NCBI GenBank assembly: GCA_965215565.1
Contig: CBDCDZ010000004.1
Location: forward strand, 3,264,001-3,328,000
DNA: 64,000 nt
Direction of reading: 5' to 3'
Origin: Trueperaceae bacterium
GTDB lineage: Bacteria; Deinococcota; Deinococci; Deinococcales; Trueperaceae
Position 1 is the first letter of the stretch, and each line of letters opens with the position of its first letter. The position numbers were made by a program, and so were the translations under genes. The notes under the pieces are model-generated. The model did no database searches. It was given only the letters and a program-made list of their open reading frames with translations, and was not told where the DNA came from. Below, piece after piece: positions 40,951 to 49,410 of this stretch.

Positions 40951-41062
40951 TATAGCAAGTATCATTTGATTTGAGCCAGTCTCACGCTGGAGAACATCGA
41001 CGAGCACGCACATTCTTAAATGATACTTGCGCTATTTCAATTCAGCACTTCTGTGAATTGCT
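40951..41062. repeat. MITE-like dispersed repeat, copy B
   Basis: GCAAGTATCATTT...AAATGATACTTGC inverted repeat; shares blocks with 2178-2336. Confidence 0.7.
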
Positions 41063-43745: not shown

Positions 43746-44621
43746 AGACCTCTTGCAAAAGTCATGAATCGAGGTTGGCGTTGATGAGCCCGGCGATGAG
43801 GTTGAAGCGTAAGGAGAAGCGCTTGCGCCTATTACGGTAAGTTTCTTTGAGGATACGCCAGATCTTGAGCGAACGAATCACATGTTCTACCGCGATGCGG
43901 AAGCGTCCTAGAGCGCGGTTGTGTTGTTTGGCTTCATCACTAAGCTCACCGCCCTTAGGCTTTTTGACGGGCAAGCAGGTCTGTGGATGACGCGTTGCTA
44001 AGCCTTGATAGCCGCTATCAGCGACGTACCAGACTTCAGGTTTACACCTAGGGGCTGTTTCTTTGAACAGCTTGTAGTCGTGCTTGGGACCTTTGGCGTG
44101 GGCTGTTGAAAGAATCCTCGTGTCACTTGCGTCTACCAGCACTTGACTCTTCAGCGTGTGGCGCTGCTTTTTTCCGCTAAAGTAACGTCGCTCCTTTTTT
44201 TGGGCTTCTCAATAGGCGTCTCGGTGACATCAATCAAGACGACAGTCCACTCAATCTCTTCCACCTCGCGCCTTTTAGGTAAGCTGAACTTGCCTGAAGC
44301 GATGAGTACGTCTTCAATCCGTGTGATGATCCGGTTCGCTGTGGACTCGTGCAGTCCGTAACTCGCCGCAATATGAAACTGCGTCCTGTATTCGCGCCAG
44401 TACGACAGCGCTAAGAGCAGTTTGTCCTCCAAGCTGAGTTTGCTTGTGCGTCCCGCCTTCTTCTTCTGCCGTTCAGCTTCTCCTAGAACGTCGAGCATCT
44501 GTTTGAACACACCAGGCTTGACGCCTGTCAAACGTCTGAACCCTTCTGGCGCTAGTCCTCTAATCTCTTCGTATCGCATAGCCTTACTTTGCAGCTATAT
44601 GTCTACTTTTGCAAGAGGTCT
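43746..44621 (-). mobile_element. IS5-family (ISL2/IS702-like) insertion sequence
   Basis: 17-bp perfect TIR AGACCTCTTGCAAAAGT; 3-bp target duplication AGT (43743-43745 and 44622-44624). Confidence 0.92.
43762..44579 (-). CDS. IS5-family DDE transposase, two ORFs joined by a -1 frameshift
   Basis: ORF1 HTH ...IDVTETPIEKPKK; A7G at 44184-44191; -1 frame YFSGKKQRHTLK...ADSGYQG...RIAVEHVIR. Confidence 0.88.
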
Positions 44622-47359: not shown

Positions 47360-48289
47360 ATGAACGACGTGGACGAAGCTGCGCTGCCGCAAGGACTCTC
47401 CCTTCGTAAAAAAGGGGAGAGCTTAGAGACGGTCTCCTCGAAAGCCATCGAGGTGCAGCTTCTGGCGGCGGGGCAGGGCGTAGAGATTCTTGAAGGAAAA
47501 TTGGGTAAGGGCAAGCGAATAACGCTCGTCCCTTCGGGTAAAGCGCTAGAGACATACTATATTTTGGAGGGACAGTTGCGTAGCGATAGCGATGCTGCCG
47601 CCAGGTCTATAGCTGTGGATGCGGGAGATTACCTCGTGACGGAGTCGCTAGCAGAATCTTACACCCTACTCGCGCAAACTGACGTTCGCTTTCTCTACTT
47701 CACCTCACAACCCACCTTTCACGAGATAAGCGAAGAGTTGGGCGATCTGATGCGGCTCGCCGTCGAAGTCGAAGTCAAGGACGGTTACACCGCCGAGCAT
47801 TGCAGGCGGTTACAGGTGCTCTCCTACGCGGCGGGACAGGAACTCGGCTTGGCGCAAGACAGGCTCTACCTTTTGGATTACGGCGCATATTTACACGATG
47901 TAGGCAAAGTCAAAGTGCCCGCCAACATCCTGCGCAAGCCCTCCACGCTGACCCAAGCGGAATGGGCGCTGATGAAAAAGCACCCTACGTTCGGGCGCGA
48001 ACTGCTCGAGAAAACCTACCTTAAAAGAGCCGGCGTCATCGTCGAACAGCATCACGAGCGTTTAGACGGAAGTGGCTACCCCCACGCACTCTCCGGGGAG
48101 GACGTCCTCATCGAGTCCTATATCGTCGCCGTCGCAGACGCCTACGACGCGATGACCACAGACCGCCCCTACCGCCGCGCCGCGCCGCCAGAGCAAGCGT
48201 TTATCGAACTTAGGAAATACGCCGGGATATACTACCCGAAAGAGGTCGTGCGCGCCTTTATTTCGGTTGTGATGAGAAAAGCGCTGTAA
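47360..48289 (+). CDS. cupin-domain + HD-GYP cyclic-di-GMP phosphodiesterase
   Basis: N-terminal ETYYILEGQL...AGDYL beta-barrel; HC.R, LHDVGK, HP, HHERLDGSGYP, ADAYDAMTTDRPYR. Confidence 0.9.
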   Translation: MNDVDEAALPQGLSLRKKGESLETVSSKAIEVQLLAAGQGVEILEGKLGKGKRITLVPSGKALETYYILEGQLRSDSDAAARSIAVDAGDYLVTESLAESYTLLAQTDVRFLYFTSQPTFHEISEELGDLMRLAVEVEVKDGYTAEHCRRLQVLSYAAGQELGLAQDRLYLLDYGAYLHDVGKVKVPANILRKPSTLTQAEWALMKKHPTFGRELLEKTYLKRAGVIVEQHHERLDGSGYPHALSGEDVLIESYIVAVADAYDAMTTDRPYRRAAPPEQAFIELRKYAGIYYPKEVVRAFISVVMRKAL

Positions 48290-48331: not shown

Positions 48332-48772
48332 CGCTCTATGAGCGTAACTTCTAACGTCCTCACATTGTGACACCTCCTTTTCAGTCTGGTATAACACTAA
48401 CAATCTGCGAACACTCAACCAAAACAAACTGGACGCTGTTACGGTTCTGCGTGACGCTTCTCCACCCTCTGAGCGCTCGGGCGGTACGCCGAAGCGTAGA
48501 CTTTTTTGGTACTTGCGTACTCCCTCCTAACTATTGAAAGCGGTATTTCTATACGCTGACGCCGCACAGTTCAGCCGTAAAGTATGAGAACGCTTTTTAC
48601 GTTAATAACTTCATAAGGCCCGCTCCAATCGGATAAGAAGAATCTCACGCACTATTAAAAAAGCTTCTATGAGTTCTCAGTGTGCTCGATGTCACTCGGT
48701 TTCATCTTTGTGAAAAGTCCGCCACGGAGTATTTCAGTACCCATGATACGTTGTGTTTCGAGGTTGATAAGC

Positions 48773-48870
48773 CTCATCGGAAGCGACGACTTCTGTCCCG
48801 CAAGGAGCTTTGCTAAAGGCTCTTCTGGGCGCTTGGGACAGAAGAAGCTAGTAGCGCAACCGGCCGGGAC
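48773..48870 (+). ncRNA. c-di-GMP-II riboswitch aptamer
   Basis: CGGAAGC-GACGA-CTTCTGTCCC...TGGGCGCTT-GGGACAGAAG-AAGCTAGTAGCGCAACCGGCCG follows the class II layout (GGAA...GGGCRCUU...AGUAGYGCAACCGRCC) with pseudoknot GCGCT/AGCGC. Confidence 0.85.
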
Positions 48871-48935
48871 GCTCTTCCGGACAACTTGAAAAGCTTTGGA
48901 AAACCGGAGCACGCCATATCAGGGAGGATATGAAA

Positions 48936-49067
48936 ATGAAAAAGTCACTCATCAAAGCGTTGGTTCTTGCTCTTACTCTTACTGCGTTTGGTACAGTTTC
49001 GACAGCGAGCGCTGCCGAAGGTTCGGACAAGGCTCCGTCAGTTCAAAAGTTTAGAGTCAACTGCTAA
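48936..49067 (+). CDS. 43-aa secreted peptide precursor 1 (Phr-like architecture)
   Basis: GGGAGG RBS; MKKSLIKALVLALTLTAFGTVSTASA-AEGSDKAPSVQKFRVNC*. Confidence 0.85.
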   Translation: MKKSLIKALVLALTLTAFGTVSTASAAEGSDKAPSVQKFRVNC

Positions 49068-49087
49068 AGATTAAAAGTTCACCAACG

Positions 49088-49119
49088 AACTCCTCTACGA
49101 AGACGTAGAGGAGTTTTCT
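49088..49119 (+). terminator. terminator after peptide 1
   Basis: AACTCCTCTACG-AAGA-CGTAGAGGAGTT-TTCT. Confidence 0.8.
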
Positions 49120-49204
49120 CTTACCTCTTTTTTGCTGTGAAGTTTTCCACATTGTGGTTGACGCCCTGCAGACGAAATTTAGGGGTAAAAGAGAGAGGGT
49201 ACAC

Positions 49205-49330
49205 ATGAAGAAACTCACAAGCTTAACGCTCGTTTTGATGCTGGCTATCTGCGGTTTTTCTGTGGCGTCTGCGGGTGCTGCATCTTCAGACGGTGAGCCG
49301 TCAACTCAGAAGTACAGAGTCAACCGTTAA
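49205..49330 (+). CDS. 41-aa secreted peptide precursor 2 (paralog of precursor 1)
   Basis: GAGAGGG RBS; MKKLTSLTLVLMLAICGFSVASA-GAASSDGEPSTQKYRVNR*. Confidence 0.85.
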   Translation: MKKLTSLTLVLMLAICGFSVASAGAASSDGEPSTQKYRVNR

Positions 49331-49350
49331 GGCTGTAAGCAACATACTCG

Positions 49351-49383
49351 GGCGTCTCCGCGCAGAAGCGGAGGCGCTTTTTT
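49351..49383 (+). terminator. terminator after peptide 2
   Basis: GGCGTCTCCGC-GCAGAA-GCGGAGGCGCT-TTTTT. Confidence 0.85.
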
Positions 49384-49410
49384 ATGTTCTGTCTAATTCA
49401 TACTCCAAGG

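Follow-up and report, generated by a model that had tools for sequence, protein, structure and literature searches.

A variant class II c-di-GMP riboswitch with a probable repeat remnant, ahead of predicted exported peptide genes and behind a cupin + HD-GYP gene in Trueperaceae

Introduction

A stretch of 64,000 nucleotides from the genome of a Trueperaceae bacterium (hereafter the window) had been proposed, in a sequence-only reading, to carry at 48773-48870 a c-di-GMP-II riboswitch with an extra inserted hairpin, leading a micro-peptide gene. The locus raises the question of whether an aptamer so interrupted still belongs to its class, where the hairpin comes from, and what the messenger would control through such a small gene. 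The nearest precedent comes from C. difficile, where class I switches precede genes for small proteins (PMC13724677). A full-text literature search, with subscription journals outside its coverage, returned no paper on a cupin + HD-GYP/peptide pair and none on repeats inside class II aptamers. The features of the locus are collected in Table 1.

Table 1. Features of the locus and repeat copies elsewhere in the window.
Feature	Position	Strand	Remarks
Cupin + HD-GYP protein, 309 aa from ATG	47360-48289	+	in-frame TTG 47315 gives 324 aa
Predicted extended -10 element TG-A-TACGTT	48744-48752	+	7 nt before the 5' hairpin
5' hairpin GAGGTT/AGCCTC, predicted transcript start	48760-48775	+	GAGG or GAAGG hairpin recurs in paralogous leaders
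c-di-GMP-II aptamer core: P1, P2, kink-turn, 10-bp stem, pseudoknot	48777-48867	+	Rfam envelope 48770-48873
9-bp hairpin in the loop, probably both ends of a palindromic module of 80-104 nt that has lost its middle	48803-48824	+	
Ligand pocket CAACCG	48857-48862	+	part of the aptamer core
Predicted expression platform, hairpin CCGGGA/TTCCGG competing with P1	48864-48880	+	constrained folding
Shine-Dalgarno GGGAGG	48922-48927	+	8 nt before ATG 48936; 2 nt before alternative ATG 48930
Peptide gene 1, 43 aa, signal-peptide-like N-terminus	48936-49067	+	orthologues in G001 and G002
Terminator-like hairpin, 13 bp, then pyrimidine and T run	49087-49133	+	-20.3 kcal/mol; absent from the strict scan list
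Peptide gene 2, 41 aa, C-terminus STQKYRVNR, without its own riboswitch	49205-49330	+	orthologues in G001 and G002
Intrinsic terminator-like hairpin with T run	49350-49385	+	12 pairs, 8 G-C; -23.0 kcal/mol
Repeat copies	40953-41062; 2180-2275; 2554-2628	-; -; +	

The aptamer and its ligand pocket

The covariance search with RF01786, suggested as a check in the sequence-only reading, gave a significant match at 48770-48873 that spans the entire model (positions 1-84 of 84), with E-values of 1.4e-7 in 3 kb and 4.9e-8 genome-wide and a score of 43.8 bits, which falls short of the gathering cut-off (53.5); in the source genome (G000), four copies that lack an insert reach 65-74. This match and the presence of every named element support the claimed class II aptamer with its inserted hairpin: P1 (TCGG/CCGG) lies at 48777-80 and 48864-67, the GGAA junction at 48779-82, the 10-bp stem is formed by CTTCTGTCCC (48790-99) and GGGACAGAAG (48835-44), and the pseudoknot pairs GCGCT (48829-33) with AGCGC (48853-57). 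The latter pair had been singled out as a variant and is indeed present, but it is not peculiar to this site, since relatives use it more often than any other pseudoknot (48 of the 74 distinct aptamers inspected). Across the family, about 460 pattern matches were found, of which 74-76 distinct aptamers were inspected; the pseudoknot is complementary in 73 of 74, with eight pair types. In the kink-turn-like GA region, one strand has a GAC bulge followed by GA, and the opposite strand carries AA instead of GA. Specifically, position 48845 is A while 71 of the 76 inspected aptamers have G, and the non-standard A at 2n is found in two of the 76, including the window aptamer.

The whole-window Rfam scan also assigned 48770-48873 a score of 43.5 for the clan sister RF03169 (c-di-GMP-II-GAG), which exceeds the gathering score of 40 and thus renders the site visible to Rfam. 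A reading as a GAG variant was rejected: the pocket is the canonical GCAACCG, in contrast to GCGAGACCG in the RF03169 model, and an A stands at 48858 where the GAG type needs G. The score above the cut-off probably reflects tolerance of the loop insert. The ligand contacts of structure 3Q3Z, as given in the available part of PMC7288161, are A13, A14, U37, G39, U60, A61, and C68-A74; 12 of these 13 bases are identical in the window aptamer, the placing of U37 and G39 being putative, and the thirteenth (A74) is a G, as in the RF01786 consensus.

Plain folding of the aptamer region is not significant (z -0.42), as expected of a pseudoknotted RNA, and the energy of the class II secondary structure goes from -17.7 kcal/mol without the extra hairpin to -27.7 kcal/mol with it, leaving the 10-bp stem intact. 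The window switch shares with 3Q3Z and the C. difficile Cdi2 switches the fold, a kink-turn-like region, the pseudoknot, the pocket string, and, by prediction here, exported products downstream; unlike them, it bears a 22-nt hairpin within the pseudoknot loop and an A at kink-turn position 2n. The window riboswitch is a variant of this known class.

Other class II switches of the source genome were recorded alongside. At C4:941494-941580, a divergent aptamer (L006) with a GCGACCG pocket and an altered P1 junction lies divergent from a GGDEF gene at 940124-940585. At C4:2483145-2484498, two tandem switches and a third 1 kb further (L001, L002, L004) precede exported proteins that resemble fimbrial subunits by eye, and a repeat copy sits between the tandem pair and its gene.

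The inserted hairpin and its likely origin

The extra hairpin has the 9 bp attributed to it, formed by AGGAGCTTT (48803-11) and AAGGCTCTT (48816-24) around the loop GCTA. Its 12-mer at 48813-24 occurs 12 times in the genome against none for the reversed control, and a palindromic module of 80-104 nt, with ends like GAGAAGCCYTTAGC and GCTAAAGGCTCTT, is present at nine places outside riboswitches, and the window hairpin probably corresponds to the left end of this module joined to its right end. A profile of the nine module copies matches the insert of the orthologous switch in the relative G001 (L013) with an E-value of 1.1e-8 and three other G000 inserts with values from 7e-7 to 1.4e-5, while its match to the window stump is weak (E 0.015) and the inserts of L028, L085, and L095 gave no match at E 10, their assignment resting on the closing stem; a general repeat profile aligned to the inserts over their last 20-25 nt only. 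In Rfam searches of eight paralogous loci for a second known RNA family in the hairpin, only the c-di-GMP-II clan appeared at a meaningful E-value.

The G001 switch has an 81-nt loop, with 54 extra bases within the hairpin relative to the window, and differs from the G000 aptamer, from P1 to P1, by a single base outside the insert. The G002 orthologue carries a long insert in a decayed aptamer that has lost P2 and has a mismatched pseudoknot; inserts are therefore not always harmless. The short form in the window is not an assembly artefact, because a contig from a second study covers 48600-48977 without a gap; the second-study contigs also have the hairpin in its short form, with two of its bases (48805, 48809) altered so as to resemble the left end of the module more closely, and the loose ends at 48811-12 match the long forms.

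In G000, 5 of the 10 class II pattern matches have an insert, always at one and the same point of the loop, and all five fall below the RF01786 cut-off; the counts for the identical position are 3 of 12 for G001 and, apart from the decayed copy, 2 of 11 for G002. Conversely, the orthologues L027, L084, and L092 have no insert, and none was found outside the source genus among the 74 distinct aptamers inspected, where seven other long loop values were due to mis-picked stems. Within the genus, the insertion point is the same in four different switch loci and the closing stem is kept in nearly all, while the loops measure between 26 and 83 nt and have interiors that bear no relation to one another. 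Paired into a stem, the insert does not displace the U-GGG segment of the loop. Taken together, the sequence comparisons make it likely that the hairpin is what remains of a repeat and is tolerated by the aptamer, as opposed to a novel RNA domain. One and the same class II aptamer thus occurs naturally with a long insert, with a short one, and with none, a series suited to testing the tolerance of the pseudoknot loop. As a separate observation, L008 and L009 (G000:C4:2505947 and 4293659) share an identical insert-bearing switch and the start of a lipoprotein gene, a recent duplication.

The dispersed repeat family

In the source genome, an unnamed family of repeats occurs in many copies between genes; its members are about 110 nt long and contain nested hairpin modules, and the commonest form starts with TAGCAG and ends with CTGCTA. 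The end motif of the repeat has 284 matches in G000 against 1 for the reversed control; the matches are mostly intergenic and mostly followed by TA, and 12 of the 284 lie inside ORFs of at least 200 aa, compared with 72% of random positions. Of 128 genomes of the bacterial family, 25 contain the motif, and the repeat has no match in Rfam. Among the repeat spans inspected, none held a parent transposase with the ends of the repeat, and for this reason the repeat is only MITE-like. An insertion sequence at 43750-44610 (minus strand) of the window, whose transposase occupies two reading frames and which is bounded by terminal inverted repeats around CTCTTGCAAAAGT, was considered as the parent and discarded because its ends differ. 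Short arrays also occur: at G000:C4:179848-179945 the end motif is repeated four times head-to-tail in 27-nt copies, and similar arrays are present in G046.

Correia, ERIC, and Rickettsia palindromic elements are bacterial MITEs or palindromic repeats that insert in structured RNAs. The G000 repeat resembles them in being short, intergenic, high-copy, hairpin-forming, TA-flanked, and built of nested modules; it differs from them in that the riboswitch module is an inner part of larger copies and in that no parent transposase was found among the spans inspected.

The peptide genes and their leader

The 43-aa ORF claimed downstream starts at ATG 48936, 65 nt after 48870, and its synonymous bias marks it as a real gene. 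Compared with G001, it differs at 11 of 132 bases, distributed over the codon positions as 3/0/8, with 8 synonymous against 3 non-synonymous codons. A second peptide gene starts 137 nt beyond the first, and its differences from G001 are distributed as 6/1/14; these patterns indicate that both genes are under coding constraint. Each product opens with basic residues, continues into a hydrophobic stretch, and reaches an A-S-A site, after which come 17-18 polar residues, the predicted mature part of peptide 1 being about 17 aa with the C-terminus SVQKFRVNC; from these putative signal peptides, judged by eye and with a hydropathy filter, export by Sec would be expected. The peptides and the partners of about 100 aa described below matched no Pfam or NCBIfam family above any cut-off, and the best ESM Atlas score of 0.80 is a lead only. 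A third peptide, with FRVNR, is encoded at C4:1236809 behind an insert-bearing switch and a paralogous enzyme. Away from cupin + HD-GYP genes, ORFs of 32-42 aa with signal-peptide-like starts and ribosome sites lie at G000:C4:971776, 1216112, 1578198, and 2808488.

Transcription would start near 48760. A TAnnnT element at the same spacing as the putative extended -10 element was seen by eye in 9 of 12 paralogous leaders, with TG-n ahead in seven; a consensus promoter scan that requires a -35 box did not list the element at 48744-48752. Downstream of the aptamer, the 3' arm of the predicted platform (TCTTCC, 48873-78) is complementary to the ribosome-binding site, and the G002 orthologue has a platform hairpin of its own (CTGGGA/TCCCAG). 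When P1 was locked in constrained folding, the predicted accessibility of the ribosome site fell from 1.00 to 0.42 at the window locus; among 11 loci scored, it decreased by at least 0.2 in seven, was unchanged in three, and increased in one. These calculations outline a possible switching mechanism. In the absence of ligand, the hairpin at 48864-80 would take the 3' strand of P1 and leave the ribosome site open, while ligand binding would fix P1 and free TCTTCC to pair with GGGAGG, hiding the ribosome-binding site. The window riboswitch is thus predicted to be a translational OFF switch with a peptide as its target, unlike the class II switches of C. difficile (Cdi2), which the available part of PMC13724677 describes as ON switches.

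The neighbouring cupin + HD-GYP protein

The gene upstream of the riboswitch encodes a protein with a Pfam HD_5 match (E 3e-28), in which HDVGK and HHERLDGSGYP are intact. Its top PDB matches are HD-GYP enzymes, and the cGAMP-specific HD-GYP enzyme 5z7c is also among the top sequence matches. The model of the N-domain (pLDDT 90.6) has a cupin fold, with a TM of about 0.6-0.7, and the alignment of the cupin domain contains no conserved histidines; the full-length model, at pLDDT 57.5, was left out of detail. The highest 19-residue hydropathy of 1.0 indicates that the enzyme has no membrane segment, and the protein is predicted to be a cytoplasmic c-di-GMP phosphodiesterase. The source genome also contains 33 GGDEF matches and six SBP_bac_5 proteins.

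Within the phylum, the cupin-domain profile matched 33 of 364 genomes, all of them Trueperaceae (32 of 127 relatives and G000), and none of the 236 genomes of other families. In a wider library, 230 representatives matched at E 0.001 or better, with HD and GYP motifs in 73 of the best 150, and two of the ten matches looked up were labelled Bacillaceae and Paenisporosarcina; judging by these matches, the putative receptor architecture reaches beyond Deinococcota into Bacillota.

Pairing of enzymes and small partners across Trueperaceae

The pairing was surveyed at 53 of 62 cupin-profile matches in 30 Trueperaceae genomes, the nine omitted being mostly fragments or on short contigs. A small partner ORF is present at 47 of the 53 cupin + HD-GYP loci and missing from six, counts that express conservation and not independent events because the loci are related by descent. 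At 26 loci, the partner matches profile A4, built from 15 of these loci and describing an exported protein of 93-118 aa with the end P-[VI]-D-P-F-x-F, in several cases with a lipoprotein-type signal; these loci hold 26 of the 31 A4 matches in 364 genomes. They include one deletion fusion (L153) and one partner beside an enzyme with an internal stop (L155). A further 18 loci have a signal-bearing peptide of 41-49 aa, and at three the partner is an ORF of 14 aa, for example MIRKTVCEGFRVNG, which lacks a signal but is preceded by a strong ribosome site; two loci combine a long partner with a peptide ending in PVTNPFRF. An automatic peptide filter gave a call at 24 of the 53 loci, about four of these calls being wrong, and in 10 of 300 randomly placed 5-kb windows.

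A C-terminal pattern is common to the long and the short partners (PVDPFRFSN, PVTNPFRFSR, LFEFNR, QKFRVNR, QKFEVNK), which is repeated in some precursors. Among the 18 short peptides, ten end in F-x-[VIF]-[NS], six do not fit, and two have GFTV[ST] repeated internally. At 13 loci, 11 of which belong to the short-peptide group, a class II switch immediately precedes the small gene; the other 40 have no riboswitch. In one genome, four paralogous enzymes each have a different peptide. A tree of 50 of the 53 enzymes, obtained with a quick method, has a mostly open backbone, and the partner types follow its terminal clades, which is no proof of co-evolution. As a conserved arrangement of genes the cassette has good support, and its mechanism, proposed here from sequence, is unproven.

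Two groups of loci deserve separate mention. L153 (G112) was considered as a natural enzyme-partner fusion and dismissed, as the C-terminal part of the enzyme and the signal of the partner are missing; a deletion has joined the truncated HD-GYP gene to the mature part of the partner gene. In L139, L143, and L145, the 14-aa ORFs lie about 170-260 nt after the enzyme stop, end in G-F/V-R/K-V-N/T, have no signal peptide, and are preceded by a conserved leader motif that also occurs before the 41-aa peptide of L133; these ORFs may possibly represent an intracellular form of the signal together with an unnamed RNA element.

Discussion

We propose, as a reading that has even chances of being correct, that the riboswitch with its probably repeat-derived hairpin shuts off translation of a peptide that is exported, re-imported, and regulates the cupin + HD-GYP protein. 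Specifically, the exported peptide would be trimmed and taken up again by an Opp/Dpp-type transporter, its C-terminal F-x-V-N stretch would be the active signal and would bind the metal-free cupin domain, and the peptide-bound domain would change c-di-GMP breakdown. An inhibitory peptide would generate a negative feedback loop and an activating one a positive loop. Confidence in these steps decreases from the repeat stump to the binding of c-di-GMP by the aptamer, to Sec export, to switching between P1 and the ribosome-binding site, and finally to binding of F-x-V-N by the cupin domain. The broader proposal, that cupin + HD-GYP proteins are direct receptors of returned peptides, a class apart from RRNPPA, paralogue-specific, and with a riboswitch closing a cell-to-cell loop, is more tentative and falls somewhat short of even chances. 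Points against the circuit are the six loci that have no partner, the 40 that have no riboswitch, the six short peptides that do not fit the motif, the kink-turn A of the window aptamer, the decayed G002 orthologue, the four of 11 loci at which locking P1 did not lower accessibility, and the ON switches of C. difficile. The host is inferred to be diderm, so that export and re-import would cross more barriers than in Bacillus, and the 26 proteins or lipoproteins of about 100 aa, which could act outside the cell without entering it, likewise count against the circuit.

The main rival takes up this last point and holds that the exported peptide acts outside the cell, on the surface, the matrix, or a membrane receptor, the enzyme being a co-inherited regulator that binds no peptide. 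The products behind the other switches of G000 are indeed exported proteins and lipoproteins, exported proteins of 93-118 aa make up half of the partners, several of them with lipoprotein-type signals, and small molecules are the commoner ligands of cupins. However, the near one-to-one pairing of enzyme and partner in both directions fits a cytoplasmic cognate partner better, and an external role would leave aside the fact that four paralogous enzymes of a single genome come with four distinct peptides and the retention of the C-terminal motif in the signal-less 14-aa versions; we regard this rival as rather unlikely, albeit the strongest.

Less likely still, and in our view improbable, is that the insert and the kink-turn change have disabled the aptamer, leaving a decaying leader and a peptide gene free of c-di-GMP control. 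The position of the insert within the pseudoknot-forming loop and the A at 2n would fit such a loss, as would the state of the G002 orthologue, without P2 and with a mismatched pseudoknot, and the 5'-truncated, insert-bearing copy L089; yet the G000 and G001 aptamers are one base apart outside the insert, compared with 11 of 132 bases in peptide gene 1, the insert closes as a stem that does not disturb the U-GGG segment, and folded A.A kink-turns are tabulated in the available part of PMC4316175. The opposite idea, that the hairpin is a selected subdomain that tunes affinity or kinetics or serves as a protein site, so that these switches would form a distinct subclass, draws on the common insertion point in four switch loci of the genus and the almost invariable closing stem, but loops of 26 to 83 nt with unrelated interiors, the insert-free orthologues L027, L084, and L092, and the match of the hairpin to a dispersed repeat make it highly improbable.

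The re-import and enzyme control assumed in the proposed circuit are drawn from the gene pairing and the likeness to Rap-Phr systems (PMC11343458, as far as its available text goes). In both the Rap-Phr/RRNPPA and the window-type cassettes, an enzyme or receptor gene is followed by a gene for a short signal-bearing propeptide, some precursors have duplicated C-terminal units, and a genome may hold paralogous pairs. Unlike RRNPPA as presented there, the window cassette has a cupin as the putative receptor in place of a TPR domain, c-di-GMP hydrolysis as the proposed output, a host in Deinococcota, and a peptide gene led by a riboswitch for the same messenger. The CD1980.2 family of C. difficile, in the available part of PMC13724677, resembles the window gene in being small, previously unannotated, and located behind an apparently orphan c-di-GMP riboswitch; it differs from it in that the switches are class I and transcriptional and the products are membrane-associated proteins tied to sporulation, and that part of the source names no paired phosphodiesterase.

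The interest of the locus lies in the cassette; the hairpin in the riboswitch is probably an ordinary remainder of a repeat. Should the peptide control the enzyme, a soluble protein of 34 kDa, this would be a peptide signal acting directly on c-di-GMP turnover via a cupin receptor, and the messenger's own riboswitch would give feedback on the peptide signal.
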